Positions 2,086 to 52,181 of a stretch of DNA of 64,000 bases are shown here, piece after piece; positions within the stretch are counted from its first letter, which is position 1, and the number at the start of each line of letters is the position of its first letter. Both the position numbers and the translations under genes were made by a program. Source of the stretch: Nitriliruptorales bacterium (GTDB taxonomy: Bacteria > Actinomycetota > Nitriliruptoria > Euzebyales > JAHELV01); contig JAHELV010000005.1 in the NCBI GenBank assembly GCA_024644015.1, positions 13,297 through 77,296 on the forward strand, written 5' to 3'. The notes below the pieces were generated by a model. That model did not search any database. It had not been told where the DNA came from and was given only the letters and a program-made list of their open reading frames with translations.

Positions 2086-2114
2086 CCCCCGGCCATCCGT
2101 TACGCTGCGCGACC

Positions 2115-3326: not shown

Positions 3327-3332
3327 TGCGTG

Positions 3333-3812: not shown

Positions 3813-3904
3813 TGCTAGTCACCCCGGTGCGGTCGGCGGCGGTTGACGAGCGCGTAAGTGTAGACGCACGCTGACCGCTCCGCGGCGAGGTAAGGGAGAA
3901 TCAC

Positions 3905-4777: not shown

Positions 4778-4852
4778 GCTCCGGGACGCCGGCAGCGGGA
4801 ACTACGGACCGGATCGTGTCCGTGTCCGTGTCGCTGCGATGTGGAGGCACCG

Positions 4853-5653: not shown

Positions 5654-5663
5654 GATCCGGCTG

Positions 5664-7701: not shown

Positions 7702-7820
7702 CGGTACCGAGCTGAGACGCGTGCGCCCTGCGTACGTCGCCGTGCGTCTGCCGTGCGGGACGCTGACGTGCAAAGAAAACGCCGGTATGGCCGCTGACTC
7801 GTATATGCTGCAAAGCGTCA

Positions 7821-8357
7821 ATGACCGATGCGGCCACCTCCATACAGCTCTTGCGCCACGCGAAGGCGCAGCGTCGTGATCGGTGGTGGGGCAAGCCCGA
7901 CCGCGACCGCCCGTTGACGAAGATCGGCACGGCGCAGTCGAAGAGCCTCGCCGTCGATCTTTCGACGCAGGGGATCACGCGCATCCTCACGAGCCCGTAT
8001 GCCCGATGCGTGCAAACCGTGGAACCGCTGGCCGACCGGTTGGGCATGGAGATCGGCCTGGCAGAGGCCCTGGGTGAGGCACCGTCGGTGCCGCTGCTCG
8101 ACGCCGGCGACACCTGGGTCACCTCCGCGTGGCTGGGCGGCCGGGCGCTCGCCCTGGTCGACCAGGTGATCATCGACGACGCCGGCGGCCACATTCTCAT
8201 GTGCTCGCACGGTGACATCTTCCCGTCACTCATGGCGACTCTTGCAGGCCGCGACGGCCTCGAGATCGGCGACGTCCACCTCAAGAAGGGCGCGCGTTTC
8301 CGGCTGCAGTTCAAGGGTCAGAAGTGCGTCTCCGTCGAGGTGGTGCCACCGCCGTGA
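7821..8357 (+). CDS. histidine phosphatase family protein (SixA / phosphoglycerate-mutase-like)
   Basis: LLRHAKA, the RHG-type catalytic motif, sits near the N-terminus. SPYARCVQTVEPL and a downstream CSHGD follow. 178 aa. Confidence 0.75.
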   Translation: MTDAATSIQLLRHAKAQRRDRWWGKPDRDRPLTKIGTAQSKSLAVDLSTQGITRILTSPYARCVQTVEPLADRLGMEIGLAEALGEAPSVPLLDAGDTWVTSAWLGGRALALVDQVIIDDAGGHILMCSHGDIFPSLMATLAGRDGLEIGDVHLKKGARFRLQFKGQKCVSVEVVPPP

Positions 8358-8394
8358 TGCAGGGCGGTACGACGTCTAGGGAAGAGGATGCGTC

Positions 8395-9735
8395 ATGGGC
8401 TCGACGTTCGTGCTCGACACGTGTGTACTGCTCGCCGACCCCCGCGCGCTGTACCGCTTCGACGAGCACGACGTGGTGCTTCCGCTCGTGGTCGTCGAGG
8501 AGCTCGACCGTCAGAAGACGCGGATGGACGAGGTCGGACGCAATGCTCGGATGGCGCTGCGCCTGATCGAGGAACTGCGGGTCCGCAGTTCGAACGGATT
8601 GCGCGACGCCGTGTCGCTGCCGAATGGTGGCACGATCCGGGTCGAGGGCAATCACGTCGACAGCACGCTACCCCCGTACCTGGACCCGGCGAAGCCGGAC
8701 AACCGCATCCTGTCAGTTGCGGTGGGCCTCGGCGGCACGCTGGTCACCAAGGACGGCGCGTTGCGGATCAAGGGCAGCCAGCTCGGTGTGGACGTCGAGG
8801 ACTACCGCGCCGACACCGTCGAGGTCGACGAGCGCTACACCGGTATCGCCGAGCTCGACGTCGATTCGGCGTCGCTGGATCTGCTGCACCGGGACGGCAA
8901 GCTGGAGCTGTCGGCCGCTGCCGCCGCGCGGGTCGGAGCATGGGTGAACCAGTGCCTGGTGCTGCGCGCGGGCACGTCGGCGAGTGGCCTTGCGCGGGTG
9001 GCGTCCTGCACGCCCGGCGAGCCGGTCGTGGTCGAGCGGGTCGGTGGACGACCGCGGGTGTTCGGTGCCAGCCCGCGCGACGTGCGCCAGACCTTCGCGC
9101 TGGATCTGTTGATGGACCCTGCGGTGCCATGCGTGTCGCTGATGGGCATGGCGGGGACGGGCAAGACGTTCCTCGCGCTTGCGGCGGGCCTGGAACAGGT
9201 GGTCGAGGCCGGTGCGTACCGTCGCCTGTCGGTCTACCGGCCGCTCGTCGCCGTGGGGCGGCAGGAGGTCGGGTACCTGCCCGGCGATCTGGACGAGAAG
9301 CTGCAGCCCTGGATGGCCGCCGTGCACGACAACCTGTACTCGCTGTTTCGTGGCGATGATCAGGCGGGTGGCCACGGCACGAACGGACACCGCGGACTGC
9401 AGTCCGCCGTCGACGCGCTGCTCGACCGCGGACAGCTGGAGATGGCCGCCATCACGTATCTGCGTGGCCGGTCGATCACCGACGAGTACGTCATCGTCGA
9501 CGAGGCACAGAACCTCGAACTGCCGACGCTGAAGGTGATTCTGACGCGGATGGCGGCCGGGTCGAAGGTGGTGTTCTGCGGCGACCTGTCGCAGGTCGAC
9601 AACCCGTACATCTCCCCATACGGCGGGCTGGCGGCACTGATCGAGAAGATGAAGGGTTCTGCGCTGTTCGGCCATGTCACCATGTCGAAGGGCGTGCGCT
9701 CCCCGCTGGCGGAGCTGGCGGCCACAACCTTCTGA
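8395..9735 (+). CDS. phoH2: PhoH2-type protein (N-terminal PIN domain fused to PhoH ATPase)
   Basis: The PIN N-terminus is FVLDTCVLLADP...VVVEELD. The PhoH domain has Walker A GMAGTGKT and Walker B YVIVDEAQN. Confidence 0.88.
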   Translation: MGSTFVLDTCVLLADPRALYRFDEHDVVLPLVVVEELDRQKTRMDEVGRNARMALRLIEELRVRSSNGLRDAVSLPNGGTIRVEGNHVDSTLPPYLDPAKPDNRILSVAVGLGGTLVTKDGALRIKGSQLGVDVEDYRADTVEVDERYTGIAELDVDSASLDLLHRDGKLELSAAAAARVGAWVNQCLVLRAGTSASGLARVASCTPGEPVVVERVGGRPRVFGASPRDVRQTFALDLLMDPAVPCVSLMGMAGTGKTFLALAAGLEQVVEAGAYRRLSVYRPLVAVGRQEVGYLPGDLDEKLQPWMAAVHDNLYSLFRGDDQAGGHGTNGHRGLQSAVDALLDRGQLEMAAITYLRGRSITDEYVIVDEAQNLELPTLKVILTRMAAGSKVVFCGDLSQVDNPYISPYGGLAALIEKMKGSALFGHVTMSKGVRSPLAELAATTF

Positions 9736-39801: not shown

Positions 39802-41244
39802 GTGCGGAAGACCAAGATCGTCGCCACCCTCGGGCCGGCACTGGATGATCGCGACAAGCTTCGGGCCGCGCTCGAGGCGGGCATCGATGTCGTGCGCCTC
39901 AACTTCAGCCACGGCGACCACGACACGCACGCGCGGCGGCTGCGCAACGTGCGCGAGCTCGCCACGAACCTCGAGCGCAACATCGGTGTGCTCGCTGACC
40001 TCCAGGGCCCCAAGATCCGTCTCGGCCTGCTGCCCGACGACGGCATCGAGCTCACGAACGGCTCCGAGGTGATCCTGTTGCCCGGGCTCGAGGAACTCGA
40101 CGACTACCGCAGCGGGGGACAGGTCGCGCTCCCGGTCGTCTACGGGGCGCTCGGTGACGACTGCGAGCCGGGCGCCATGATCCTCATCGATGACGGCTCG
40201 ATCCGGCTGGTCGTGTCGCGGGCATCCCACGACGAGGTCGTCGCGCGGGTCGTCGCAGGCAACGTGGCCAAGAGTCGGAAGGGCGTGAACCTACCCGGTG
40301 TCCGTGTCTCGGCGCCGAGCATCACCGAGAAGGACCAAGAGGACCTCAAGGTCGCCGTCGATCTCGGGTGCGACTGGCTGGCGCTGTCGTTCGTGCGCCG
40401 TCCCGAGGACGTCGAGCAGGCGCGGGAGTTGGTCCGCCAGCAGGGCGGTGAGGCGCCGTTGATCGCGAAGCTGGAGCGTCCCGAGGCCATCGAGAACCTC
40501 GAAGCGGTCGTCGCCGCGAGTGACGCCGTCATGGTTGCCCGCGGCGATCTGGGTGTCGAGATCGGCCCGGAGCGGGTACCCGCCATCCAGAAACAGATCA
40601 TCGCCCAGGCCAACAAGGACGCCAAGCCGGTCGTGACGGCGACCGAGATGCTCGACAGCATGATCAACTCCCCGCGCCCCACCCGCGCGGAGGCCAGCGA
40701 CATCGCCAACGCGATCTTCGACGGCACTGACGCGGTGATGCTGTCGGGTGAGACGGCGGCCGGCAAGTACCCGGTCGAGGCGGTTCGCACGATGGCGCGG
40801 ATCTGCGAGGTCGCCGAGACGTCACCGCACCTCGTCGGCCCGATCGAGCATTCCCCCGTGGCTGCCGACGACGTCGTGAGCGTGGTTGCGCGTGCGGCTG
40901 TGGCGGTCTCCCGCGACGTCGAGGCCAGCGCGCTGGCGATCTACTCGATCACCGGCGCGGCGATCCAGCTCGTCAGCAAGTTCCGGCCGCCGGTCCGCCT
41001 CGTCGGGCTCACGCCGCAGGACACCGCTCGCCGGCGCACCGCGCTGATGTGGGGCGCCGAAGCGTTGCTCGTACCGATGAAGAGCGAGAGCGTCGACCTG
41101 ATCAGTGCCGCCGAGCGCGTGCTGGTCGACGGCGGCATCGCGCGGCACGGCGACCGCATCGTCATCGTGTCGGGCACCGCTGGCAGCTCCGGGAGCACGA
41201 ACCGCATCTACGTGCACCGCATCGGCGACCCGATGCGCGGCTGA
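39802..41244 (+). CDS. pyk: pyruvate kinase
   Basis: RKTKIVATLGPA...VVRLNFSHG, then MVARGDLGVEI, then ATEMLDSM and MLSGETAAGKYP. Start is GTG. Confidence 0.93.
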   Translation: MRKTKIVATLGPALDDRDKLRAALEAGIDVVRLNFSHGDHDTHARRLRNVRELATNLERNIGVLADLQGPKIRLGLLPDDGIELTNGSEVILLPGLEELDDYRSGGQVALPVVYGALGDDCEPGAMILIDDGSIRLVVSRASHDEVVARVVAGNVAKSRKGVNLPGVRVSAPSITEKDQEDLKVAVDLGCDWLALSFVRRPEDVEQARELVRQQGGEAPLIAKLERPEAIENLEAVVAASDAVMVARGDLGVEIGPERVPAIQKQIIAQANKDAKPVVTATEMLDSMINSPRPTRAEASDIANAIFDGTDAVMLSGETAAGKYPVEAVRTMARICEVAETSPHLVGPIEHSPVAADDVVSVVARAAVAVSRDVEASALAIYSITGAAIQLVSKFRPPVRLVGLTPQDTARRRTALMWGAEALLVPMKSESVDLISAAERVLVDGGIARHGDRIVIVSGTAGSSGSTNRIYVHRIGDPMRG

Positions 41245-41347
41245 TGCGTGTCTCGAACAGCAAGGCGCTCGGCACCGCCGCGCGCCTTCGGCCCACCCGT
41301 GCGTGTCGGCGACGACACCGTCATCGTGTGTGCCTCCGTGGTGCGTC

Positions 41348-42721
41348 GTGAGGCTGGTGGTCATCGGCGGTGATGCCGCGGGCATGACCGCCGCCAGCGT
41401 GGTCCGCCGGCGCCGTGACGACGCCGACATCGTGGTGATCGAGCGCGGTCACTACACGTCGTACTCCATGTGCGGCATCCCGTACTACGTCGCCGGGTCG
41501 ATCGGACAGCCCGAGGATCTGGTGGCACGCAGTCCCGCCGAGTTCCGTGACGCGGGGATGACCGTACATATGCGGACCGAGGCAACCGCGATCGATCCCG
41601 ACCGGCGGGTGGTCACGGTCCGCGATCTCGACCGCGACGCCGAGCGGACCGAGCCGTACGACGCGCTGCTGTACGCCACCGGTGCCCATCCGCGGGTACC
41701 CGACCTGCCCGGGCTCGACAGGCACGGATATGTCGTGCACACCCTCGACGAAGGCGCGCAGCTACGCGACGCGCTCGAGCGGCGTGATGACGTGCGCACG
41801 GTCGCGATCGTCGGCGCCGGCTACATCGGGCTGGAGGTCGCCGAGGCGCTGATCGAACGCGGCCTGGCCGTGCACCTCATCGATCGCGGCCCGCACGTCA
41901 TGCGCACCTTGGACGCCGACATGGCCGCCAGGCTCGAGAAGATCCTCTCTGACTTCGGCGTGCAGTTGCATCTCGGCGAGAGCCTCACGGCCATCCACGC
42001 CGACGGCTCGCACTGCCGCGAAGTGGTCACCGACCGTGGCTGCTACGAGGCGAACGCCGTGGTGCTCGCGATGGGTGGCACCCCCAACGTCGCGCTCGCG
42101 CGCGCGGCGGGGTGTGACGTCGGCCCATCGGGCGGGTTGGTCGTCGACAACCGCATGCGGACGACGGTACCGGGGGTCTGGGCCGCCGGCGACGTGGTCG
42201 AGTCGCGTGATCTCGTCGCGGGCCGGCGGCTCAACGTGCAGCTGGGCACGCACGCGAACAAACAGGGCAAGGTCGCGGGCATCGACATCGCGGCCCATCC
42301 CGGTGAGGGCGATGCGGCCTTTCCCGGCGTGGTCGGCACGGCCGTGACCCGGCTGTGTGACTGGGATGTCGCCCGCGTGGGCCTGACCGAACGGGAGGCC
42401 AAGGACGCGCGCATCGCCTACGGCGCGGTCAGCTTCACCGGAACCGCGACAGCGGGGTACATGCCCGACCCCGGCGTCGTGCACGTCAAGATGCTGGCGC
42501 AGCGGGAGACCGGCCGGGTACTGGGCGCACAGCTGTTGGGCACGGGCAATGTCGCCAAGCGCATCGATGTCGCCGCGGTGTGGTGCCAGCTCGGCGTGAC
42601 GGTGCAGGACGCGCAGTTCTTCGATCTGTCCTACGCCCCGCCGTTCGGCGGCGTCTGGGACCTCCTGCTGGTCGCTGCGCGCAAGCTGACCGCCGAGCTG
42701 GGCCTGTCGCCGCAACTCTGA
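41348..42721 (+). CDS. FAD-dependent pyridine nucleotide-disulfide oxidoreductase (CoA-disulfide reductase / NADH oxidase family)
   Basis: VRLVVIGGDAAGMTAA begins at GTG 41348. The single redox Cys motif is SYSMCGIPYY. The second Rossmann motif is VAIVGAGYIGLEVAE. GAGDV is also present. The track ORF begins at 41105. Confidence 0.85.
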   Translation: MRLVVIGGDAAGMTAASVVRRRRDDADIVVIERGHYTSYSMCGIPYYVAGSIGQPEDLVARSPAEFRDAGMTVHMRTEATAIDPDRRVVTVRDLDRDAERTEPYDALLYATGAHPRVPDLPGLDRHGYVVHTLDEGAQLRDALERRDDVRTVAIVGAGYIGLEVAEALIERGLAVHLIDRGPHVMRTLDADMAARLEKILSDFGVQLHLGESLTAIHADGSHCREVVTDRGCYEANAVVLAMGGTPNVALARAAGCDVGPSGGLVVDNRMRTTVPGVWAAGDVVESRDLVAGRRLNVQLGTHANKQGKVAGIDIAAHPGEGDAAFPGVVGTAVTRLCDWDVARVGLTEREAKDARIAYGAVSFTGTATAGYMPDPGVVHVKMLAQRETGRVLGAQLLGTGNVAKRIDVAAVWCQLGVTVQDAQFFDLSYAPPFGGVWDLLLVAARKLTAELGLSPQL

Positions 42722-42761
42722 CCTCGTCCGGCGTTGTGGAAGACCGTCACACCAACCACGC

Positions 42762-42806
42762 GGTGGTCGTCGTTTGGTGTCGCAGGCACCTCATACGACG
42801 ACCACC
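42762..42806. terminator. 12-bp perfect stem-loop between convergent genes (possible bidirectional terminator)
   Basis: GGTGGTCGTCGT (42762-42773) pairs with ACGACGACCACC (42795-42806), with a 21-nt loop. There is no U-tract. A third, 10-nt copy GGTGGTCGTC lies at 42824-42833 inside the neighbouring small ORF. Confidence 0.4.
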
Positions 42807-42818
42807 CCACGATTGGGG

Positions 42819-43094
42819 TCAAAGGTGGTCGTCATGTTGCGGGGTGGTTCGGGCGCGGCGGGGTGGGGGCGGTTGGGGGACCACGCGGGCCGCCAGCAGA
42901 TCCTCCTCGGTGACGATCGTGGTCGATCCGTTGCGCCGGGTGATCTGCAGCTGTCCATCGCGCCAGTCGCGCAGCACACCGACCACATCCACCGCCGAGG
43001 CATCCGGCCCATGGTGGCGCGCACGCACCGTGATCCGTGCGCCGATGTCGTCGGGTGTGATGCGGACCTCGAGCCGCGCATGAAGTGCTGCCAT
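42819..43094 (-). CDS. small hypothetical protein (91 aa)
   Basis: From ATG 43094 it reads MAALHARLEVRITPDDIGARITVRARHH...VDVVGVLRDWRDGQLQITRRNGSTTIVTEEDLLAARVVPQPPPPRRA. From memory, this resembles the N-terminal module that precedes the GNAT domain in some actinobacterial acetyltransferases. No GNAT domain follows here. Confidence 0.4.
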   Translation of the reverse strand: MAALHARLEVRITPDDIGARITVRARHHGPDASAVDVVGVLRDWRDGQLQITRRNGSTTIVTEEDLLAARVVPQPPPPRRARTTPQHDDHL

Positions 43095-43248
43095 CAGCGT
43101 CCATTGTGCGACGCTACGTTCCAGCGGCAGCCGATTGTGGATGCTGGGCTTGCGGTCGCGAGCGGCTAGTCTGTTGAGACAACGATCGACGGACGGACCC
43201 GTGTGCATGCACGGGCCACGCCCAAGGGCTGAAGGAGCACACCCACTC

Positions 43249-43572
43249 ATGGTGTACGTGATCGCCGAACCGTGCATCGACGTCAAGGACCGCGCCTGCG
43301 TCGAAGAGTGCCCTGTTGACTGCATCTACGAGGGTGAGCGGATGTTGTACATCCAGCCCGACGAGTGCATCGACTGCGCCGCATGTGAGCCCGTGTGCCC
43401 CGTCGAGGCCATCGCATACGAGGACGACATCCCCGACATGTGGACCGAGTTCACGGCCATCAACCGGGAGTTCTTCGAGGACAGCGTCACCGGCCTCGGT
43501 GCGCCCGGCGGCGCCGCTGTGGTCGGCGTCCAGGCGACAGACCACCCGAAGGTCGCCAACTGGAGCTTCTAG
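43249..43572 (+). CDS. fdxA: 7Fe ferredoxin (3Fe-4S plus 4Fe-4S)
   Basis: MVYVIAEPCIDVKDRACVEECPVDCIY...CIDCAACEPVCPVEAI. AAGGAG lies upstream of ATG 43249. The track ORF starts at 43135. Confidence 0.92.
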   Translation: MVYVIAEPCIDVKDRACVEECPVDCIYEGERMLYIQPDECIDCAACEPVCPVEAIAYEDDIPDMWTEFTAINREFFEDSVTGLGAPGGAAVVGVQATDHPKVANWSF

Positions 43573-43584
43573 GCACCGGTCATG

Positions 43585-44742
43585 TCATGATCCCGAGCTG
43601 ACCGCACGCAGGCCAGCTGTCGCCGAGCGGATCGGTTCCAGATCGTCCTCGCGTTCGACTCGCAGTTCGTCGAGTTTGTCGAGCGGACGTTCCAGTTGCC
43701 GCCGCCGCGTGGTGCTCAGCGCGTCGTACGTCTTCTGCGAGCGTGCGAGGTGCGTGCCCAGCTTGTCGAACTCGTCGCAGTACTTGTCCCACTGGGTGCG
43801 GAAGTCCGCCAGGAGCGACAGGATCTGGTCCGACGTCCGCTCGAGCTGGAAGTTGTCGACGGACTGCCGCACGACCGCCAGGACCGCGAACAGCGTGAGC
43901 GGTGAGCACAGCACGATCTTGCGCTTCAGCGCGTCGTCGACCAGGCCACGGTCGTGCTCCTGGATGAAGCCGAACAAGGCCTCGTTCGGGATGAACAGCA
44001 ACACGCAGTCGATCGCGCCGTCCGGGTCGCGGTAGCCGCGATCGGCAAGCTCCTTGACACGATCGCGCGCGTCCCGCAGAAAGCCCTTGCGGAAGCGCTC
44101 GCCGTCGGTGTCGTTGCCGGCGTCGAGGTAGCGCAGGTAGTTGTCGAGCGGGAACTTGACGTCCATGTGCAGCTCGAGCCCGCGGGGCAGCAAGAACGTG
44201 AAGTCGGGGATCCCGCCACTGTCCAGGCGCCGCTGCTTGCAGTAGTTGACGCCTTCGAGGAAGCCGGCGAGCTGCAGCACGTCCTCGGCCATGCGTTCGC
44301 CCCACTGCCCGCGGGCCTGGCTCGACGACAGCGCCTGGCGCAGGTCCTGCGTCGTCTCACTGAGCGCCCGCGTCTGCCTGCCGGTCTCGGCGAGCTGCTC
44401 GGCGAGCGTGCCGAGCTGTTGCGCACGGCTGGTCTCGAGCTGGCGAACGAGGGTCGTCACCTGATCGAGGTCGCCGCGCATCTGGTCGAGCTGGAGTCCG
44501 ATGCGTGACTCGGTGCCTTCGAGGCGCGCAGCGTCGTGCCCGCGTGCTGCGCTGAGCTGCTGCTGCGCGAGCGCGACGACCGTGTCGACGGTCTGGTGCA
44601 GCTGTGCCTGGTGATCGGACTGCAGACTCCGCTCGAGCTCGGCCGCTGCCGCTGCGAGATCACTGCGCTGGCGCGCGAGGCCGAACCAGACGACCGCGAA
44701 CGTGCCGACGATCGCGACGAGCACCGCCAAGATGGTGACCAC
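43585..44742 (-). CDS. rmuC: DNA recombination protein RmuC
   Basis: N-terminal TM, a long coiled coil, then the RmuC nuclease-like region GQWGERMAEDVL...PDFTFLLPRGLELHMDVKFPLDNY...CVLLFIPNEA. Confidence 0.88.
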   Translation of the reverse strand: MVTILAVLVAIVGTFAVVWFGLARQRSDLAAAAAELERSLQSDHQAQLHQTVDTVVALAQQQLSAARGHDAARLEGTESRIGLQLDQMRGDLDQVTTLVRQLETSRAQQLGTLAEQLAETGRQTRALSETTQDLRQALSSSQARGQWGERMAEDVLQLAGFLEGVNYCKQRRLDSGGIPDFTFLLPRGLELHMDVKFPLDNYLRYLDAGNDTDGERFRKGFLRDARDRVKELADRGYRDPDGAIDCVLLFIPNEALFGFIQEHDRGLVDDALKRKIVLCSPLTLFAVLAVVRQSVDNFQLERTSDQILSLLADFRTQWDKYCDEFDKLGTHLARSQKTYDALSTTRRRQLERPLDKLDELRVEREDDLEPIRSATAGLRAVSSGS

Positions 44743-44837
44743 GAACCACTCCTGAGAACGCGTGTGGCGAACAAACGTACGACGCGCCGGCGATCCGATG
44801 GTGGAACCCGTGTCGGGTCATGTGACCTATCGCTTCG

Positions 44838-45581
44838 CTACTTGAGGTCGGTCATGGTGGCCTGCACCACGGTGTTGGAGTCGTAGTGCCGTGTCGTGTG
44901 GTTGAACTGGCCGCCGCACGTGATCAGCGTCAGCACAGCGTCGCCGTTGCGGGTGAACAGTTCCTCGATCGGCAGCACCCGCTTGCGGTACATGGCCTGA
45001 TCGAAGACCTCGAAGGCCACTGTGGAGCCGTCGTCGAACTCGACGGCTGCGGTGTCACCTGGCCGCAATTCGTGGAGTGCGAAGAATGCTCCCGGCTTGC
45101 CGGCGTGGTCGACGTGGGCCGCAAGCACCGCGGAGCCCGCGCTGCCCGGTACGGAGCCCGACCGGTACCAGACGACCGTCGCTGGGTCGGGTGGCACGTC
45201 GAGCTGGCCGTCGGCGGAGCGCCCCCTCGCGACGACGGGCGCGTGAAGGTCGAGTGCGTCGATCCGCAGTGCCACCGGGCTGCGCGCGACATCTGCGAGC
45301 CGGGCCGAGCGGTGCGTGAAGCGCTGGCCATCGGCACCGGCGGGTTGACGCGCCACGATTGCGGTGTCGCGGGCGGGCACCGCGCCTCCCATGGATGCCG
45401 ACGCGGTGACCGCGGCGCTCTCCGCAACGTCCGAGCCAGTAGACGAGGGCTCGGCCCTGCGCTCGCGCAGCGCCTGGCTGACGGCCGGAGCGAGCGCGAG
45501 GCCGACGAGCAACCCGAGCAGCAGGGCGTACCGACGCACGCGCCGGGTTCGTGTCGGGGGCCCGTTCGTCCGCGTCGTCAC
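44838..45581 (-). CDS. class F sortase
   Basis: N-terminal signal anchor. The catalytic His is in VLAAHVDH, the Cys in LTLITCGG, and the Arg in TTRHYDSNTVV. Size and motif spacing fit class F. Confidence 0.85.
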   Translation of the reverse strand: MTTRTNGPPTRTRRVRRYALLLGLLVGLALAPAVSQALRERRAEPSSTGSDVAESAAVTASASMGGAVPARDTAIVARQPAGADGQRFTHRSARLADVARSPVALRIDALDLHAPVVARGRSADGQLDVPPDPATVVWYRSGSVPGSAGSAVLAAHVDHAGKPGAFFALHELRPGDTAAVEFDDGSTVAFEVFDQAMYRKRVLPIEELFTRNGDAVLTLITCGGQFNHTTRHYDSNTVVQATMTDLK

Positions 45582-45594
45582 GACGGCTCGGGTC

Positions 45595-46410
45595 CTAGTC
45601 GCCAGCCCGCGCCGTTGCGAGGGCGGCCCGCGCCGTGACAGCTGCGGTCAGCAGCGCGAGTGCGGCCGCCGCCCACGCCCACCACGGCATGAACGCCGTC
45701 GCCACGAGACCACTGTCGCCGGTTGGCACACCGACCGGCATTGTGGCTTCGCCGGTGTCGAGCCGCTGGCTCAGCCAGCCAAGGCTGTCGTTGTCCGCCG
45801 ACCCGATCAGATACACCGCAATCACGCTCTCGGGGTCCGCGTTGATGCGCGCGGGCGGCAGCAGTGGAGCGGAGGACGAGGCCTCGACCGTCGCGATGTC
45901 GTCGGCGCCGGGCTGCACGGTGCCGTCGCCCTCCTGACCGGGCTTCAGGCCCGTGACGACCGAGGTGGTGCCGAACGTGACATCGATCGCCGGCGCCATC
46001 GCGGTGTGTCGAACCACGACTCGCGCCGTGTCGGCGCCCGGTGCGTTGAATGCGTTGTCGAAGACCGAGATGGTCGGTTCGCCGTCTGCAGCGGGATGGA
46101 CCACAGCCGACAGGTTCGCGTCCGACGGCAGCTGCAGGGTCCCTTCGACGACCGGTGTGCTGTCAGGTGCGGCGTCTGCCTCGCGAACCTCCACGGTGTG
46201 CTCACCAGCGGGCAGCTGCGTCGGGTCCGTGGACCGTGCCGGCCTGAAGCCTTCCAGGATGAGATCTCCGTCGAGGTAGACATCGGCGAGCAGGCCACGG
46301 AACCCGTGGACCAACGTCACCGTGGCCGTGTCGGATTGTGCGGCGGCGCTGCCGGGCAGTACCAGGAACCACATCGCGAGCAGAACGAGTGCTGTTCGAC
46401 GCATGTGCAT
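45595..46410 (-). CDS. DUF4397 domain protein with C-terminal sorting-signal-like tail
   Basis: Signal peptide MHMRRTALVLLAMWFLVLPGSAAAQS. A DUF4397-like repeat pattern is present (VTLVHGF...ADVYLDG; VVVRHTAMAPAIDVTFG). The C-terminus is GVPTGDSG, then a hydrophobic stretch FMPWWAWAAAALALLTAAV, then TARAALATARAGD. Confidence 0.75.
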   Translation of the reverse strand: MHMRRTALVLLAMWFLVLPGSAAAQSDTATVTLVHGFRGLLADVYLDGDLILEGFRPARSTDPTQLPAGEHTVEVREADAAPDSTPVVEGTLQLPSDANLSAVVHPAADGEPTISVFDNAFNAPGADTARVVVRHTAMAPAIDVTFGTTSVVTGLKPGQEGDGTVQPGADDIATVEASSSAPLLPPARINADPESVIAVYLIGSADNDSLGWLSQRLDTGEATMPVGVPTGDSGLVATAFMPWWAWAAAALALLTAAVTARAALATARAGD

Positions 46411-46418
46411 TCCTTCGT

Positions 46419-48551
46419 CTAGACGGGCTGCGAGCTGGGCTCACGGTCCTCGGTCGATCGGGTGAACAGCGTCAGCACCTGGTCGCACACCCACGTGTCT
46501 GTGAGTTCCCGCTCGGGCTGCAACCAGCCAGCCTCGGCGGCGGTGACCAGCAGGCGTCGGGCCGCGTCGCCCGACACGGTCAAGCGGCGGGCCACGAGAT
46601 CTGCGTCGAGGATGGGCCGCGCCAGCGTGAGGTCGATCAGCGGGAGTACTCCGGCGTGGTCGGCGCGCTCCCGCCAGCGTTCTCGCAGGCCACCGAGCCG
46701 CTTCAGGCGGTCGGCGTTCTCGGCGGCTCCCTGTGCCACGCAGTCGCACAACAGCTGCAGCCACCGGTCACGTTGCGCGGCGTCGTGCAGGTCTGCATTG
46801 AGCGCTGCGCGGTAGCGCCGTGCCTCGTCGAGGAGCTGCGGGCTCAGCGTCAACACCGGGCGTGCGAGCCGCGCTGCCCGCATGATGTCGACGGCGGTCA
46901 CGGCCCGGGCGACAAGCTGGTCGTCGCGGCCATCCCGGTGTGAAAGGACCACGTGCTCGAGGCCGATCTCGACGAGCGGATTCAGTGCGCGCACCGGTGC
47001 GATGGGCCGCTGCGGGCCGGTGGTCCCGCTCGCCGCGCCACCGGTCAGCACCGCGTTGATCTCGACCACCGGCGGCGGTGCCGACCTGCGGCGGGCGGTG
47101 TGCTGCCAGCCGGTCGACAGCGCTGACGCGGCCCGGCGCACCAGCTCGACGTCGTCGGTGCGGTCGGTCTGCGACAGGTCGGCGACGAGCACGTCGTGCA
47201 AGGTGACCGCCCGCCCGCTCAGCGCGACGCTGGCACGCGCCTCGGTGAGGCGGAACATCTCATCGGGCACGCTGTCGGCCACCGCCCGCGAGGCCAGCGC
47301 GAGCTGGCGAAGACCGAGGTGCGCATGGGCGAGGGCCTCCCGCGTCTGCGGTGTCAACTTGGCGATCGGCCGGGTCGCACTCGTTGCGTGCCGCGGTGCC
47401 CTCGCCGTGCCTGAAGCGACTCGCGGCGGATCGTCGGGCGGCGGCTCGGGTCCGTGTCGAACCCGGCGCCGGAGCAGCTGGGTGCCTGCGATCAGCAGGG
47501 ACAACAACAGGACGATGACCGCCGCGGCCGAGAGCCATCGGGGCGCCGTTTCGCTGTCGGTCCCCGCTGGTTGCGCATCCGACGGCGGCGGCGCATCGGC
47601 CGCGACCGCAGCGTCGGGTTGCGCTCCAGCCGAATCGGTGTCGATCGGCCGCACGCTGTCGGGGTCGAGCACGACCGTGCGGGCCGGCACGTCCTCGCCC
47701 GCGACCGGGACCTCGAGCGTGAGCGTCTGCGCGGCCGCGTCGGGCGTCCCGATCTCGGCGCGGTACAGATTGCGGAGATCGTTCGCCATCTCATCGGTGG
47801 CCGGCAGGATCCCCGCCATCTCGTCGACGACGCTGACGGCGCCAGCCGTCCGCGGGCCGAGCAGGGTGTCCTCGCCGCCGGCGCCGACGCTGACGACGTA
47901 TGCCGTCGCGGTTTCCACCGGCAGGTCGTCAATCGGATTGATACGCCGATCCAGGTCCCGCCCGACGACGAGGAGCGCCGCGCGGTCCTGGGTGGACCCG
48001 GCAAGCAGCCGGGTCGCCTCGTCCACGGCGGCCCGGATGTCACCCTCGGAGTCCGGGCGCAGCTGTCTGATCTGGGCGATCGCCGGTCCGGGGACGGGCG
48101 CAGGCTGCATCGCGATGCCGTCCGCGCCGATGACGCGCATGGTGGCACCCGGGGGCAGATCGAGCGCGAGCTCGACGACGGCTCCCTGCAAGGTCCGCAG
48201 CTCGTCCGGCCCGAGCGTGGTGTCGACCACGACGGCGACCTCGACGTCCGTGGCGGAGAGCCGCTGCAGCCTGACCGGCTGCGGGACGCCGTCGACCGTC
48301 GCGACGATGTCGTCGCTGGTGAGGGTTTCCGTCACCAGCCGTGCTGGTGCCGCGAACAGCACGCGTGTCGGGTCACCGGCCTCGACTGCGAGGATTTCGA
48401 GCTGGTCGAGCGCGTCGGTGTCGACCAACGGGAGGCCGGTGGCGGGGGAGGCCCAGACCAGCATCGCTGCCAGCAGTGCGATCGCGACAGCAATGCGTTC
48501 CAGACGACCGACGACGCCCGGATGACGTCGTCGGTCAACGGTCAAAGACAA
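46419..48551 (-). CDS. bitopic membrane protein: vWA-like ectodomain (no MIDAS), TM, cytoplasmic Fic-like plus winged-helix region with degenerate Fic motif
   Basis: 710 aa with a TTG start and GAAGG upstream. Signal peptide spans aa 17-38. The vWA-like pattern is EVAVVVDTTLG...MRVIGADG...AALLVVGRDLD. A Pro/Asp/Ala linker follows. TM spans aa 339-360 (WLSAAAVIVLLLSLLIAGTQLL). Cytoplasmic region: TEARASVALSGRAVTLHDV (Fic_N-like), LEHVVLSHRDGRDDQLVAR (Fic position), LTLSPQLLDEARRYRAAL, and C-terminal LARPILDADLVARRLTVSGDAARRLLVTAAEAGWL (wHTH-like). Confidence 0.7.
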   Translation of the reverse strand: MSLTVDRRRHPGVVGRLERIAVAIALLAAMLVWASPATGLPLVDTDALDQLEILAVEAGDPTRVLFAAPARLVTETLTSDDIVATVDGVPQPVRLQRLSATDVEVAVVVDTTLGPDELRTLQGAVVELALDLPPGATMRVIGADGIAMQPAPVPGPAIAQIRQLRPDSEGDIRAAVDEATRLLAGSTQDRAALLVVGRDLDRRINPIDDLPVETATAYVVSVGAGGEDTLLGPRTAGAVSVVDEMAGILPATDEMANDLRNLYRAEIGTPDAAAQTLTLEVPVAGEDVPARTVVLDPDSVRPIDTDSAGAQPDAAVAADAPPPSDAQPAGTDSETAPRWLSAAAVIVLLLSLLIAGTQLLRRRVRHGPEPPPDDPPRVASGTARAPRHATSATRPIAKLTPQTREALAHAHLGLRQLALASRAVADSVPDEMFRLTEARASVALSGRAVTLHDVLVADLSQTDRTDDVELVRRAASALSTGWQHTARRRSAPPPVVEINAVLTGGAASGTTGPQRPIAPVRALNPLVEIGLEHVVLSHRDGRDDQLVARAVTAVDIMRAARLARPVLTLSPQLLDEARRYRAALNADLHDAAQRDRWLQLLCDCVAQGAAENADRLKRLGGLRERWRERADHAGVLPLIDLTLARPILDADLVARRLTVSGDAARRLLVTAAEAGWLQPERELTDTWVCDQVLTLFTRSTEDREPSSQPV

Positions 48552-48644
48552 AGCCCGCCTTCACCCATGTCGATTCCACGTACGTAATCGCACGCGGGGC
48601 GATACCCAGCGTGACGCCGAGACGATATCCAGGAACCCCTAAAC

Positions 48645-48684
48645 GTGATGATTTCACGGAAGACTGGTTCTCACTAGTGATCAC
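48645..48684. promoter_or_regulatory. palindrome cluster in the AT-rich leader of the 710-aa gene (candidate operator/promoter)
   Basis: GTGA-TGATT-TCAC lies at 48645-48657. The overlapping perfect palindromes TCACTAGTGA and GTGATCAC lie at 48671-48684. TACGTA (48581-48586) and GATATC are also present in the same 149-nt spacer, which is visibly less GC-rich than its surroundings. Confidence 0.3.
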
Positions 48685-48700
48685 ATGTACCAGCGGTTAA

Positions 48701-49630
48701 TCATTCATCACTCAGAGCTATGTATCGCGCGTACCGGCTCTGCGCGAGCCCGCGCTCGTCGACGGCCGCTCGTACGGCACAACCTGGTTCGTGTCGGTGG
48801 CTGCAGTCCGAGAACCGGCAGCCGGTCGCCAGGTCGGCGACGTCGCGAAAGGTGAGGGCGAGACCGCGCGCCGGCTCCCACAGGCCGAGCGCCCGGATCC
48901 CGGGCGTGTCGATCACGCTGCCGCCCGATACCAGCGTCAGCGAGCGGCGGGTCGTGGTGTGCCGGCCCATCGCGTCCCCGGCACGTACCTCACCGGTCAG
49001 CTGTGACGGCGAGCCAGCGAGGGCGTTGATGAGGGACGACTTGCCAGATCCGGAGCGCCCGAGCAGCGCGGCGCAGTGTCCGTGACGCAGCTGTTCCGCC
49101 AGCTGCGCGATGCCGCGCCCGTCGACGCTGCTGGCGGTCGCCACCTCCACGTCGGGAGCGAGCGCGGCGATGTCCGCGGTCACGTCTCCGGCGCCGCCGA
49201 GGTCGGCCTTGGTGACCACGATCAGTGGGGGCGCGCCGCTGCCGTGCGCGACAACCAGGGCGCGATCGAGCCAGCCGGCACGCAGCGGTTGGTCCACCGA
49301 GTGCACGATCCAGACCCGGTCCATGTTCGCCGCCAGCGTCTGCGGTCTGGCCGATCCGGGATCGCGTCTGGTCAGCGCCGTCCGACGACTCGTGATCGCG
49401 GTGATTCTCGGCTGCTCGCCGTCGGCTGTGAAGGCCACCCAGTCGCCGGTGATGACTGCGTCGCCGGAAGTCGGTGCGGTGACCGACAGATCACCGTCGT
49501 CGCGCAGCACTCGCAGCCACCCCCGGTCGACGCGGGCCACACGTGCCGGCAGGCCGGGCAGCGTGGCGAACGCCTGCGCCCAGCCGTCGTCCCATCCCAG
49601 CGCGGCCCAGCGCCCCTGATCGACGATCAT
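48701..49630 (-). CDS. rsgA: ribosome small-subunit-dependent GTPase A
   Basis: Circularly permuted GTPase with VVTKADL (G4), GRSGSGKSSLINAL (G1) and DTPG (G3). The C-terminal zinc motif is CRFSDCSHRHEPGCAV. Confidence 0.9.
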   Translation of the reverse strand: MIVDQGRWAALGWDDGWAQAFATLPGLPARVARVDRGWLRVLRDDGDLSVTAPTSGDAVITGDWVAFTADGEQPRITAITSRRTALTRRDPGSARPQTLAANMDRVWIVHSVDQPLRAGWLDRALVVAHGSGAPPLIVVTKADLGGAGDVTADIAALAPDVEVATASSVDGRGIAQLAEQLRHGHCAALLGRSGSGKSSLINALAGSPSQLTGEVRAGDAMGRHTTTRRSLTLVSGGSVIDTPGIRALGLWEPARGLALTFRDVADLATGCRFSDCSHRHEPGCAVRAAVDERGLAQSRYARYIALSDE

Positions 49631-49646
49631 GCTGTTGGCGCGAAGG

Positions 49647-50990
49647 TCACGCGGGGTTTCCTCCGTCGTCGCGCACGAGGCGTGGCTGCTCGGCTACCAG
49701 CGGGGTGGCGGCCTCCGATCCCCCGTACGACACCACGTCCCGTCGGAAGAACAGAGACAGCGTCCAGTCGGACAGCACGCGCATTCTGCGGGTGAGCAGG
49801 GGCATGGCATACACGTGGTAGCTGCGCGTGATGAGCCATCCGAGCATGCCCGAGAACCGCATGCCGAGCACCTCGGCGATCCCCCGGTAGCGGCCCAGCG
49901 TCGCGACCTGTCCGAGTGCACGGAAACCGTACGGCCGCAGCGCACCGCCGTCCAGCGACGCTCGGAGGTTTCCGGCCAGGTGCCGTGCCTGCCGGATGGC
50001 GTGCTGCGATGTCGGCGGATCCGTTTCGTCGGGTGTGCGCACGTTGACCACGCGCGCGATGTCACCAACCGCCCAGAGATTGTCGCGGTCTTCGACGCGC
50101 AGCGTCGCATCGACCCTGATGCGACCGTGCTCGTCGGTCGGCAGGTCCAGATGCGAGACCAACGGGTGTGGCGCGACGCCGGCGCTCCATACGACTGTGT
50201 GCGCCTCGATGGTCCGCCCGCCGGACAGCTCCACCCGGTCGGGGTACACCGCCTCGAGCCGCGTGCCGGTATGGATCTCGATGCCCCGGCGCGCCAGCAG
50301 CTCCGTCGCGTACTCACCCAGCCGGGAGGGGATCGCGGGCAGGATGCGCTCCCGGGCCTCCACGAGCACCCACCGCTGTGGGATCTCGCGCAGCCGAGGG
50401 TAGTCACGCAACGCGTCCTGCACGAGATCGTGGAGCTCCGCCAGCGCCTCGACGCCGGCGTAGCCTGCGCCGACGAACACGAACCCCAGGTGGGCGGCGG
50501 CCCGGTCCCGGGTCAACTCGTTGTCGGCCAGCTCGAGCTCGCGCAGCACGTGGTCACGCAGGTAGACCGCATCGTAGAAGGTCTTGAAGCCGACGCCGTA
50601 CTCGGCGAGCCCGGGGATCGGCAACGTCCGTGACACCGCGCCCAGCGCGATGACGAGGTGGTCGAAGTGATAGTGCAGCTCGCCGACTTTGTTGCGGACA
50701 ACCACCGTGCGGGCGTCGAGGTCGATCGCGCTGACCTCACCGAGAACCACGTCCGCGTGCGGGCACACCTGACGCAGCGGCACCACCACGTGCCGCGGCT
50801 CGAGGGTGCCGGAGGCCACCTCCGGCAGCAGCGGCGTGAACAGCAGCGCGTTCTCGTCGGACACGACTGTCGCCCCGACGCGACCCATGCGCCTCGCCGC
50901 AGTCGCGCCGGCGAACCCGCCGCCGAGGATCAGCACGCCGGACCGGGCGTCGCGAGGACCGGCGCCCGGGGCCCGGGGATGTCGCTGCAT
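49647..50990 (-). CDS. ndh: type II NADH dehydrogenase (NDH-2)
   Basis: VLILGGGFAGATAARR (first GxGxxG), FVFVGAGYAGVEALAEL (second), LWAVGDIA, and a C-terminal membrane-association tail. Confidence 0.88.
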   Translation of the reverse strand: MQRHPRAPGAGPRDARSGVLILGGGFAGATAARRMGRVGATVVSDENALLFTPLLPEVASGTLEPRHVVVPLRQVCPHADVVLGEVSAIDLDARTVVVRNKVGELHYHFDHLVIALGAVSRTLPIPGLAEYGVGFKTFYDAVYLRDHVLRELELADNELTRDRAAAHLGFVFVGAGYAGVEALAELHDLVQDALRDYPRLREIPQRWVLVEARERILPAIPSRLGEYATELLARRGIEIHTGTRLEAVYPDRVELSGGRTIEAHTVVWSAGVAPHPLVSHLDLPTDEHGRIRVDATLRVEDRDNLWAVGDIARVVNVRTPDETDPPTSQHAIRQARHLAGNLRASLDGGALRPYGFRALGQVATLGRYRGIAEVLGMRFSGMLGWLITRSYHVYAMPLLTRRMRVLSDWTLSLFFRRDVVSYGGSEAATPLVAEQPRLVRDDGGNPA

Positions 50991-51023
50991 CGGTCACACC
51001 AATCGTCGATAAGCTCTGCGACC

Positions 51024-52181
51024 ATGAGCCTAGGAGCATCGCTGCCCGCCGACGAGCCCCCTGTATCGCGATCCGCCATGGACGACGATGACGCTATCGT
51101 GCGTGCCGCCTACGGCGGCGCCTGGATCGGTGGGGTGCTGCCGGAGCTCCTGTCCGGCCGCGCGCCGTGTCCGATGCCAGATTGGGTCGCCGACGCCGGA
51201 CCGCGCGTCCTGCTGCTGATCGACGGCCTGGGCTGGGAGATGTATCAGCGCTTCCGCTCGCATCTGCCGGCACTCGAGCCGTTCACCCGCGCTGTGATCA
51301 CGTCGGTCGTGCCGTCGACGACCGCGGCCGCCCTCCCTTCGCTGACCACCGGCCACACCCCCGCCGCGCACGGCATGCTCGGTGACCGGATGCGGGTCGG
51401 CGGCAGGGTCCTGAGCGTGCTCGGTTGGACCGTGGCCGACGGCAGTCCGCCAGATCCGTCAGCGGTGCAACCGCATCAACCGTTTGGCGGCCGCGACCTG
51501 GTGGTCGTCAGCAGCGCCAAGTTCGTTGGCTCGGGGTTCAGTCGGGCGCATCTGCGCGGCGCACCGTTCCGCGGCTATGACACGCCCGATGAGCTGATCG
51601 AGCAGGTCGTCGCCTGCGTGCGCGAGCGGTTCCCCGTCGTGTATGCCTACCTGCCTGATGTCGACCGCGCCGCACACGAGCAGGGCTTCGAGCACGACGC
51701 GTTCGCTGCGGCGTTGACGCTGGCCAACGATGTGATCGCCGGCATCCACCGTCGGCTGCCACCGGCTGCGGCCATGCTGGTCACCTCCGACCATGGTCAC
51801 GTCACGACGCCCGTGTCAGGACGGGTCGACCTCACGCCGCTTGTTCCGATGGTGAGTGCCATGGCGGGAAGCACGCGCTTCCGCTACCTGCATGCGCGGC
51901 CGGGCGCAGCCGCCGACCTGCGGGCCGCCGCGGTTGAGCTCGTGGGACCGCACGCATGGGTACATGATCGCGCCGGTCTGATGGCATCCGGTTGGCTGGG
52001 CCCGCAGATCAGCCCTGTGGTCGCCGGTCGTCTTGGTGACGTGATCCTCGCGGCGCGCGGCGGCGCGACGATGGTCGACCCGTCGGACCTGCGCCAGGCG
52101 CAGCTCGTGACGATGCATGGCAGTGTGACGTCGGCTGAGATGCTCGTGCCGCTGCTGGCCGCTCGAGCCATGTCCCGATGA
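51024..52181 (+). CDS. alkaline phosphatase superfamily protein (nucleotide pyrophosphatase/phosphodiesterase-like)
   Basis: From ATG 51024: LLLIDGLGWEMY, then SVVPSTTAAALPSLTTGHTPAAHGM (nucleophile Thr region), YLPDVDRAAHEQG, and VTSDHGHV. The track ORF begins at 50658, antisense to ndh. Confidence 0.8.
   Translation: MSLGASLPADEPPVSRSAMDDDDAIVRAAYGGAWIGGVLPELLSGRAPCPMPDWVADAGPRVLLLIDGLGWEMYQRFRSHLPALEPFTRAVITSVVPSTTAAALPSLTTGHTPAAHGMLGDRMRVGGRVLSVLGWTVADGSPPDPSAVQPHQPFGGRDLVVVSSAKFVGSGFSRAHLRGAPFRGYDTPDELIEQVVACVRERFPVVYAYLPDVDRAAHEQGFEHDAFAAALTLANDVIAGIHRRLPPAAAMLVTSDHGHVTTPVSGRVDLTPLVPMVSAMAGSTRFRYLHARPGAAADLRAAAVELVGPHAWVHDRAGLMASGWLGPQISPVVAGRLGDVILAARGGATMVDPSDLRQAQLVTMHGSVTSAEMLVPLLAARAMSR

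Follow-up and report, generated by a model that had tools for sequence, protein, structure and literature searches.

The subject of this report is a compact group of three minus-strand genes, termed genes 1, 2 and 3, carried by a 64,000-nucleotide stretch of contig JAHELV010000005.1 of a Nitriliruptorales bacterium; this whole stretch is referred to as the window. Gene 1 encodes a membrane protein that combines an ectodomain resembling von Willebrand factor A (vWA) with a cytoplasmic part of Fic-like and winged helix-turn-helix (wHTH) character, gene 2 encodes a DUF4397 protein, and gene 3 encodes a class F-like sortase. The genes are separated by 8 nt (gene 1/gene 2) and 13 nt (gene 2/gene 3), and these gaps, together with the coordinates and the strand, are the same as in a preliminary description of the locus. 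The features below were placed with the help of AlphaFold2 (AF2) models, whose quality is given as the predicted local distance difference test score (pLDDT).

46419..48551, minus strand: gene 1, 710 aa, TTG start, a type I membrane protein (AF2 mean pLDDT 83).
48453..48512, minus strand: N-terminal hydrophobic helix of gene 1 (aa 14–33), followed by VWA|SP; a helix in the AF2 model, conserved in homologs.
47637..48416, minus strand: ectodomain of gene 1 (aa 46–305), a beta-sandwich plus a vWA-like alpha/beta fold, pLDDT >90.
48210..48224, minus strand: degenerate metal-ion-dependent adhesion site (MIDAS) of gene 1 (aa 110–114), with DTTLG replacing DxSxS.
47466..47540, minus strand: transmembrane helix of gene 1 (aa 338–362), followed by RRRVRH (positive-inside); a helix in the AF2 model.
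46656..47372, minus strand: cytoplasmic Fic_N and Fic-like core of gene 1 (aa 394–632), starting with an invariant RPIAKL.
46905..46940, minus strand: remnant of the Fic catalytic motif (aa 538–549, HRDGRDDQLVAR), in which R549 alone is conserved.
46452..46655, minus strand: C-terminal winged helix of gene 1, HTH_13-type (aa 633–700).
45595..46410, minus strand: gene 2, 271 aa, ATG start, the DUF4397 protein.
45706..45738, minus strand: sorting motif of gene 2 (aa 225–235, PVGVPTGDSGL), disordered in the AF2 model.
45598..45684, minus strand: C-terminal transmembrane helix and basic tail of gene 2 (aa 243–271), ending in RAALATARAGD.
44838..45581, minus strand: gene 3, 247 aa, GTG start, a membrane-anchored class F-like sortase.

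A word-indexed search recovers 34 full-length homologs of gene 1, all of them unannotated and one derived from a metagenome-assembled genome (MAG) of Euzebyales. The family alignment and profile, comprising 32 members, show a hydrophobic N-terminus, the ectodomain, a linker with the transmembrane helix, a second linker and the cytoplasmic domain, in that order. Both linkers around the transmembrane helix are variable and rich in Pro, Ala and Arg. The N-terminal hydrophobic segment, probably a Sec signal peptide, and the ectodomain are conserved, and the cytoplasmic domain is conserved most strongly, with invariant blocks; in several comparisons it reaches 59–66% identity, against 41–50% for the ectodomain. 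The NCBI-sourced copy of gene 1 (P0001) has 681 aa and starts at Met30, within the hydrophobic segment (window 48465–48551). This deposited start probably lies too far downstream, since the alignment of the 32 homologs backs a longer N-terminus that holds the whole helix.

As a single sequence, gene 1 gives only sub-threshold matches, namely HTH_13 (E = 8e-4) and Fic_N (E = 5e-3; 17.2 bits, cutoff 26.7) in Pfam, and the RHE_PE00001 family (E = 2e-4, below cutoff) in NCBIfam. A phmmer search of the PDB with this sequence finds no match, and the family profile is needed to reach the Fic adenylyltransferase 9vjc_A (E = 4.8e-5) and SoFic (E = 0.01–0.06). Among the 32 members, Pfam detects Fic_N in nine and HTH_13 in 26 (best E = 2.5e-5), and the Fic family PF02661 in none. 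The AF2 model of gene 1 exceeds a pLDDT of 90 over residues 50–300 and 400–700 and contains helices at 14–33 and 338–362. In Foldseek searches against the PDB, the endodomain aligns to SoFic (3eqx/3zcn) over about 350 residues (E = 3.4e-11, TMt 0.63–0.65), and its winged helix falls on the SoFic wHTH by profile as well as by Foldseek. The ectodomain matches many vWA structures with E-values from 1e-8 to 1e-4, including ArnB (8s05_B, 1.3e-8), a Catenulispora vWA protein (4fx5, 1.2e-6) and ITIH1 (6fpy, 1.2e-6). Furthermore, the relatives P0105, P0199 and P0219 exceed the Pfam cutoffs for VWA/VWA_2. The vWA-like ectodomain, transmembrane helix, Fic_N, Fic core and wHTH, assigned by eye in the preliminary description, are all confirmed by profile, AF2 and Foldseek, and the profile and structure searches that it had proposed as a check recover both the Fic-like and the vWA-like fold.

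Both functional sites of these folds are degenerate, and explicit alignments of the Fic motif and the MIDAS agree with the earlier statement that their signature residues are substituted. In the Fic motif, the intact proteins P0117–P0123 carry HPFxDGNGRxGR, and gene 1 carries SHR--DGRDDQLVAR with a two-residue deletion; the His of the window protein is not conserved in the family, nor is the GNG loop. In the inhibitory helix, (S/T)xxxE(G/N), the gene 1 family has ASVALSG or ASAALDG, the Glu being replaced by Ser or Asp, and the Fido fold of gene 1 lacks the helix found in SoFic between the flap and the active-site helix. In the case of the MIDAS, canonical vWA relatives carry DTSGSM and gene 1 carries DTTLGP--, with a shortened loop and substituted Thr and Asp ligands. 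Judging from the fold matches and these alignments, gene 1 is a member of the Fido fold that lacks the catalytic motif and possesses a vWA fold that lacks the MIDAS.

Gene 2 matches the Pfam family DUF4397 (PF14344) in two stretches (E = 1.6e-20; 74.3 bits, cutoff 30.6). Its AF2 model (pLDDT 87.6) comprises two beta-sandwiches, at aa 28–118 and 129–217, a disordered segment at 226–238 and a helix at 243–270. Foldseek places PepT1/PepT2 first, by way of their two-lobed extracellular domains (TMt 0.68), and AlgF domains next, and a profile of the DUF4397 family finds no match among PDB sequences; on the model, gene 2 is a generic Ig-like surface module and not an enzyme. The C-terminus has the three-part layout of a sorting signal, with a motif, a hydrophobic helix and a basic tail. 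The consensus P-x-[GA]-V-[PQRD]-T-G-[DN]-S-G-L-[AV], followed by the hydrophobic helix and the basic end, is kept in 39–60 DUF4397 homologs with identities as low as about 32%, and G231 is present in all 39 homologs for which the column was counted. The earlier view of gene 2 as a secreted DUF4397 protein with a sorting-signal-like tail is in agreement with the Pfam match, the AF2 model and the conservation of the tail. The canonical LPXTG/LAXTG signal (TIGR01167) is absent from gene 2; its motif is of the form [VIA]-x-[TS]-G-[DN]-S-G-L and has no NCBIfam match. Among the 2,962 open reading frames (ORFs) with 50 aa or more that the window and the comparison loci together contain, the combined signature of motif, transmembrane helix and basic tail occurs only on DUF4397 proteins that adjoin a sortase gene.

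Gene 3 belongs to the Pfam family Sortase PF04203 (E = 1.2e-21; 77.2 bits, cutoff 26.6). Its best class is the NCBIfam class_F_sortase NF033748, a profile that is covered end to end at 137.9 bits, below the cutoff of 166; the next-best sortase class reaches 28.6 bits, and class C reaches 18.1. The assignment to class F made in the preliminary description stands as the best class by about 100 bits, at a score that falls under the family cutoff. Five other DUF4397-linked sortases behave likewise, with 123–148 bits against the class F profile, also below 166, and at most 36 bits against the next class; by these scores the DUF4397-linked sortases form a consistent, divergent class F-like subgroup. 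The catalytic domain of gene 3 spans aa 100–244. A phmmer search of the PDB with the single sequence finds no match, and the sortase family profile does match; His156 and the TLxTC Cys, Cys222, show no variation and coincide with their counterparts in solved sortases. The Arg after the Cys lies at C+9 (TTR231HYDSN) in the clade of the window and at C+12 (HHYR234SN) in the distant DUF4397-linked sortases, and the window sortase has an Asp where the distant members have R234 (window 44880–44894, aa 230–234). The intact His-Cys-Arg triad claimed earlier thus holds for the His and the Cys, and its Arg is not pinned to either R231 or R234.

The comparison loci were gathered from genome contigs (one locus), from a metagenome scan (eight loci) and, for the most part, from contigs encoding homologs. 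Acidimicrobiales, Geodermatophilus and other genomes encode DUF4397 homologs of similar length (about 270 aa) that share this tail, and in all five distant loci (L018–L022) the sortase gene stands directly after the DUF4397 gene. This adjacency is found at every locus whose DUF4397 gene is intact and does not run off the contig (the window, L008, L013, L015 and L018–L022). The DUF4397–sortase pair is a widespread two-gene cassette in Actinomycetota. Two ectodomain hidden Markov models (HMMs), searched against every one of the 2,962 ORFs, match only the orthologs of gene 1 and ORFs adjoining the distant cassettes. An ectodomain-type gene lies immediately beside the cassette in four of the five distant loci, in two orientations, as follows.

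L021, 4990–5822, minus strand: divergent gene, broken by a frameshift into two pieces whose HMM positions are contiguous; broad HMM 5e-27 and 4e-12.
L018, 4397–5711, minus strand: divergent, frameshifted gene, likewise in two pieces with contiguous HMM positions; broad HMM 8e-19 and 5e-16.
L020: divergent gene for an intact 523-aa protein; broad HMM 8e-11.
L022, 4371–7280, plus strand: co-directional gene upstream of the cassette; broad HMM 1.3e-50.

A direct tblastn search with gene 1 also reaches L018 (E = 6e-10). The protein of L020 consists of a signal peptide, the ectodomain, a transmembrane helix and a C-terminal HTH_28 domain (E = 5e-10, above the Pfam cutoff). Its alignment to the profile of the 32 gene 1 members by hhalign is colinear but weak (E = 0.069), and the broader ectodomain HMMs were used instead. 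Because L020, the one locus of the four with a readable cytoplasmic end, carries HTH_28 in this position, the conserved partner of the cassette is the ectodomain with its transmembrane helix, and not the Fic/wHTH part. Judging from this distribution, the pairing of the cassette with a vWA-ectodomain membrane protein is ancient. Its recurrence in distant lineages supports the idea of an envelope module. Of the three-part coupling put forward in the preliminary description, the adjacency of cassette and ectodomain recurs at a distance, and the Fic/wHTH endodomain is not the conserved part. The remaining distant locus, L019 of Geodermatophilus, contains no ectodomain protein; the equivalent position, directly after the sortase gene, is taken by an extracytoplasmic function (ECF) sigma factor together with an anti-sigma factor of the RskA type (7566–8880).

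Several further observations concern these distant loci. In L019, the region before the pair (1417–5672) has the look of an ergothioneine-like (egtA-D-like) operon, with GCS2, FGE-sulfatase, GATase and Methyltransf_33 matches. In L020 (3109–4292), a gene for an encapsulin shell (Linocin_M18) and one for an EncFtn-like cargo protein lie just beyond the vWA-transmembrane-HTH_28 gene. In L022, a minus-strand call at 5152–6393 (413 aa, Arg-rich, no Pfam match) is a spurious antisense frame, the true gene being the plus-strand ectodomain-transmembrane gene; the cytoplasmic part of that gene, as well as the DUF4397 and sortase genes, appear frameshifted. The contigs of L018 and L021 come from the same metagenome series (ERZ250395xx), and their splits are assembly indels or true pseudogenes. 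Pfam finds no match on the frameshifted cytoplasmic fragments of L018 and L022, and a resemblance to Fpg_N seen by eye in the cytoplasmic piece of L022 is not supported by Pfam.

For the wider family of gene 1, an exhaustive profile search of 1.84 billion representatives returns only 18 sequences at E < 1e-30. The same overall architecture occurs in the distant proteins P0104, P0105, P0108, P0109, P0110 and P0111, and in P0106 (E = 2.6e-31), and weak VWA_2, Fic_N and HTH_13 matches appear in various combinations in such proteins. The Fic motif is degenerate, too, in those distant transmembrane relatives that were aligned for it, for example WPDEASREWLAR; matches of about 380 aa are ordinary soluble Fic-wHTH proteins with intact motifs. 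Remoter relatives of the ectodomain (P0136, P0199, P0227 and P0204) possess a canonical MIDAS-bearing vWA domain with the same N-terminal beta-sandwich, their fusion partners being either T2SSF (Tad/T2SS platform-like) membrane domains or a set of three PASTA repeats. Such fusions suggest that the ectodomain is a reusable envelope module. Other remote ectodomain relatives give C-terminal matches to MarR- or DeoR-like wHTH domains.

Within the clade of gene 1, which is related to Euzebyales, the genes follow a syntenic order of NDH-2, RsgA, gene 1, the optional genes 2 and 3, RmuC and ferredoxin. In the window, the flanking genes are as follows.

43585–44742: RmuC, flanking the trio on the side of gene 3.
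48701–49630: RsgA, flanking the trio on the side of gene 1.
49647–50990: NDH-2-type oxidoreductase, beyond RsgA.

The core block (window about 41000–52000; also L002, L003, L005, L007 and L008) contains a HisKA kinase, Pterin_bind, PNPOx, a phosphodiesterase, NDH-2 and RsgA in its upstream part. After gene 1 and the optional genes 2 and 3, it continues with RmuC, ferredoxin, an Rv0428c_N-like gene, MarR, a pyridine-nucleotide disulfide oxidoreductase and pyruvate kinase. Gene 1 belongs to this conserved core and not to an island. The preliminary description had regarded the trio as a clearly accessory-looking block; gene 1 is instead fixed between RsgA and RmuC throughout the clade, and only genes 2 and 3 vary. 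A horizontal-island origin likewise finds no support: the GC content of the trio is 0.70–0.71, GC and skew are the same as in the remainder of the window, and gene 1 is syntenic across the clade. The state of genes 2 and 3 at these loci is given below.

Full trio: the window, L008, L013 and L015.
DUF4397 gene present, then the end of the contig: L006, L009 and L017.
DUF4397 remnant without sortase gene: L005, 8431–8757, an internally deleted ORF of 96 aa ending in ...GVPTGQRRR.
DUF4397 remnant without sortase gene: L007, 8572–8673, a fragment of 34 aa, 71% identical.
Nothing between gene 1 and RmuC: L001, L002, L003/L004, L010 and L012.

The remnants in L005 and L007 are direct traces of cassette decay. 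In a neighbour-joining tree of the cytoplasmic domain, the trio loci occupy several deep branches and the lineages with losses are nested among them; most parsimoniously, the trio is therefore ancestral to the clade. The preliminary description would be refuted if the three genes were not conserved neighbours in related genomes, and this is in part the case: at least five syntenic loci lack genes 2 and 3, two have remnants only, and the trio is kept elsewhere. Where the trio is present in orthologous loci, the spacing of its genes ranges from 13 nt to a 4-nt overlap, and gaps of 8–13 nt or overlaps within the clade indicate co-expression. A promoter scan of the locus finds no sigma-70-like promoter, the sigma-70 model being uninformative for an actinobacterium of 70% GC, and a terminator scan gives one chance-level candidate, within gene 1, which is uninformative at the same GC content. 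In L006, from the Euzebyales MAG, the DUF4397 protein (8302–8904) is only 33% identical to that of the window and the gene 1 ectodomain is 61% identical; a divergent paralog has perhaps taken the place of the original gene, or the sequence may be frameshifted. In L014 (1284–2560), a short contig, gene 1 has no DUF4397, sortase or RmuC gene after it, and a glyoxalase-like ORF is found instead, so that the downstream context differs in at least one relative.

These observations are tentatively explained by a dedicated sortase and substrate pair that is coupled to a membrane-tethered regulator or scaffold, with a presumed signalling step; the probability given to this reading comes close to even without reaching it. 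The tail peptide of gene 2, PVGVPTGDSGLV, is the candidate substrate of gene 3, which would cleave the DUF4397 protein at the T-G bond and attach it to peptidoglycan. Gene 1 would then use its metal-independent vWA ectodomain to bind the wall-anchored DUF4397 protein, or the same feature of the wall. Occupancy of the ectodomain would be relayed across the membrane to the pseudo-Fic/wHTH part on its long flexible linker, and this part would act as a membrane-tethered regulator or scaffold through the binding of DNA or of a partner protein. Under such a mechanism, gene 1 probably controls the cassette itself and must control something else too, since it persists after the loss of genes 2 and 3.

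The signalling step draws on three features of the distant loci, namely the true HTH domain in L020, the sigma/anti-sigma pair in L019 and the divergent layout in three loci. The HTH_28 partner and the sigma/anti-sigma factors are transmembrane routes to transcription, and a divergent gene for an HTH protein beside its target operon, as in L018, L020 and L021, is the usual layout of a local regulator. A more far-reaching version holds that the locus is a novel envelope-to-cytoplasm signalling system of Actinomycetota, in which the presence or mechanical state of a tandem Ig-like DUF4397 protein, installed on the wall by a dedicated class F-like sortase, is read by the single-pass vWA receptor, with the pseudo-Fic/wHTH or HTH_28 domain as output and, in Geodermatophilus, the sigma/anti-sigma pair beside the cassette instead; in this full form the proposal is doubtful.

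Several points weigh against the coupling of a dedicated sorting pair to a regulator. The motif of gene 2 is not LPXTG, and LPXTG is the motif cleaved by the only class F sortase with a biochemical characterisation (PMC8225981). The catalytic Arg of gene 3 is ambiguous, as the profile alignments to solved sortases end at the Cys. In the gene 1 clade, the recognition helix of the wHTH shows little conservation and no basic character, and DNA binding is harder to argue on that account. Furthermore, genes 2 and 3 have been lost about four times with gene 1 left intact (L001; L002/L010/L012; L003/L004; remnants in L005 and L007), so gene 1 is not strictly dependent on them. The distant sample itself amounts to five contexts, three of them from frameshift-prone assemblies of one study.

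Among the alternatives, a purely structural module survives best, although it is unlikely. Here gene 1 would dock or assemble the wall-anchored DUF4397 protein, as a tether or a surface layer, and the pseudo-Fic/wHTH part would only oligomerise the complex or anchor it inside the cell, with no regulatory output. The same adjacency of cassette and ectodomain applies to this explanation as well; vWA is a classic domain of protein–protein adhesion, and the fold matches include adhesin-type, complex-forming vWA proteins. The lack of conserved basic residues in the wHTH of the clade and the fusion of remoter ectodomain relatives to the non-regulatory T2SSF and PASTA domains point in the same direction. 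However, no part of gene 1 is conserved as well as the cytoplasmic domain, which is unexpected for a passive anchor, and gene 1 is retained where DUF4397 is lost; the bona fide HTH_28 domain in L020 and the sigma/anti-sigma pair in L019 also weigh against a purely structural role.

A still less probable account regards gene 1 and the cassette as independent neighbours, with gene 1 as a lineage-core gene that has its own function and an unrelated cassette adjacent by chance. The slot of gene 1 between RsgA and RmuC is fixed with or without the cassette, gene 1 is conserved throughout the repeated losses of the cassette, and the cassette of L019 stands without any ectodomain protein. Chance adjacency, however, sits poorly with an ectodomain gene adjoining the cassette in four of the five distant loci and with the finding of no other match among the 2,962 ORFs, as well as with the 8–13-nt gaps or overlaps in the clade.

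Pilus-like chemistry, in which the sortase polymerises DUF4397 or ligates it to a Lys of the ectodomain, as class C enzymes do with pilins and vWA tip adhesins, is highly improbable. A vWA protein, Ig-like subunits bearing a signal and a dedicated sortase do resemble Gram-positive pilus loci, and there are weak Foldseek matches to the Spy0128 pilin (probabilities 0.15–0.25). In contrast, gene 3 scores 137.9 bits for class F against 18.1 for class C, and the vWA protein of gene 1 has no sorting signal and is embedded in the membrane. The DUF4397 alignment contains no column with at least 30% Lys, and the ectodomain has no conserved Lys, the sole conserved one being the cytoplasmic K398; with no conserved Lys in either partner, polymerisation and ligation to gene 1 are both rejected. 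That gene 1 is a catalytically active Fic protein at the membrane, such as an AMPylase or related transferase acting on a cytoplasmic target, is hardly tenable and is rejected: the full-length SoFic-like fold and the invariance of R549, H533 and the post-motif helix favour it, but neither the catalytic His nor the anion-binding GNG loop is present in conserved form, two residues of the loop are deleted, no PF02661 match exists in the 32 members, and the motif is lost across the whole transmembrane superfamily, all distant transmembrane relatives in the motif alignment being degenerate.

From this locus and its relatives, class F-like sortases gain a candidate substrate family, the DUF4397 proteins of about 270 aa, together with a defined non-LPXTG signature, V-P-T-G-[DN]-S-G-L, and a recurrent transmembrane partner. 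Should its specificity be confirmed, this motif may be of use for orthogonal sortase-mediated ligation. A receptor family composed of two pseudo-domains, a MIDAS-less vWA and a motif-less Fic domain, bears on the reuse of enzyme folds for binding and regulation. The signalling account, if true, would provide the first physiological role for class F sortases and the first Fic pseudo-enzyme acting as the output of a transmembrane receptor. The literature search returned no account of an association of these three components, of the V-P-T-G-[DN]-S-G-L signal or of a vWA-transmembrane-pseudo-Fic receptor, in line with the preliminary description, whose author likewise knew of no such system; a search on DUF4397 returned essentially no functional papers.

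Among known proteins, SoFic (SO_4266, PDB 3eqx/3zcn) shares with gene 1 a fold of three parts over about 350 residues, in which the Fido core lies between Fic_N, with its inhibitory-helix region, and the winged helix at the C-terminus. Gene 1 differs in lacking HPFx[DE]GNGR except for the last Arg, in the change of the inhibitory SxxxEG to SxxL[S/D]G, and in its membrane anchoring downstream of a vWA ectodomain; SoFic is a soluble protein. Kinch et al. 2009 (PMC2686095) described "remote fic-like" domains joined to a wHTH (DUF1612) and noted that fusions of Fic with HTH domains are frequent. The DUF1612/HTH_13 proteins (Rhizobium Y4CF; RHE_PE00001) likewise join a remote Fic-like domain to a C-terminal wHTH, and gene 1 matches them weakly; compared with gene 1, they are soluble proteobacterial proteins of about 370 aa with no ectodomain or transmembrane helix, and gene 1 reaches 20 bits against a cutoff of 250. 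In the case of the ectodomain, ArnB, ITIH and Sec23-24 share the vWA domain with a flanking beta-sandwich, but the identity is 8–13%, gene 1 lacks the MIDAS, and the contexts (an archaeal cytoplasmic regulator, a human plasma protein and the COPII coat) are unrelated.

The topology of gene 1 recalls the ToxR/CadC regulators and the RskA anti-sigma factors, which also possess an extracytoplasmic sensor, a single transmembrane helix and a cytoplasmic DNA-binding or regulatory domain. Compared with ToxR/CadC, the order in gene 1 is reversed, with the sensor N-terminal and outside and the HTH C-terminal and inside; moreover, its sensor is a pseudo-vWA domain and its predicted output includes a pseudo-enzyme.

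As a sorting system, the locus is comparable with the marine proteobacterial class GN sortase (TIGR03784), which adjoins its VIT-vWA LPXTG target (Haft & Varghese 2011, PMC3237569). Both have one sortase beside one target with a motif, transmembrane helix and basic tail, and a vWA/VIT-like protein in the locus, and this dedicated arrangement, with the enzyme adjoining its target, is found in the window, L008, L013, L015 and L018–L022. In the class GN system the vWA protein is itself the LPXTG target; here the DUF4397 protein with V-P-T-G-[DN]-S-G-L takes the part of target for a class F-like sortase, and the vWA protein, which spans the membrane and has a cytoplasmic domain, is a partner and no substrate. 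The class F sortases (SrtF of P. acnes and the SrtF paralogs of Streptomyces and Actinoplanes) are abundant in Actinomycetota and number five in Streptomyces coelicolor and four in Actinoplanes (PMC13251363, PMC8225981). In Actinoplanes, no phenotype results from a quadruple srtF mutation, and the class is without a known physiological role, or a known natural substrate other than what the LPXTG activity of the P. acnes enzyme implies (PMC13251363, PMC8225981). Gene 3 resembles them in its best class by about 100 bits, its N-terminal anchor and its actinobacterial origin, and differs in that the six DUF4397-linked sortases score 123–148 bits against a cutoff of 166 and that the apparent signal is not the LPXTG of P. 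acnes SrtF (PMC8225981). Each component of the locus belongs to a known kind, namely dedicated sorting pairs, Fic-like/wHTH fusions and class F sortases.

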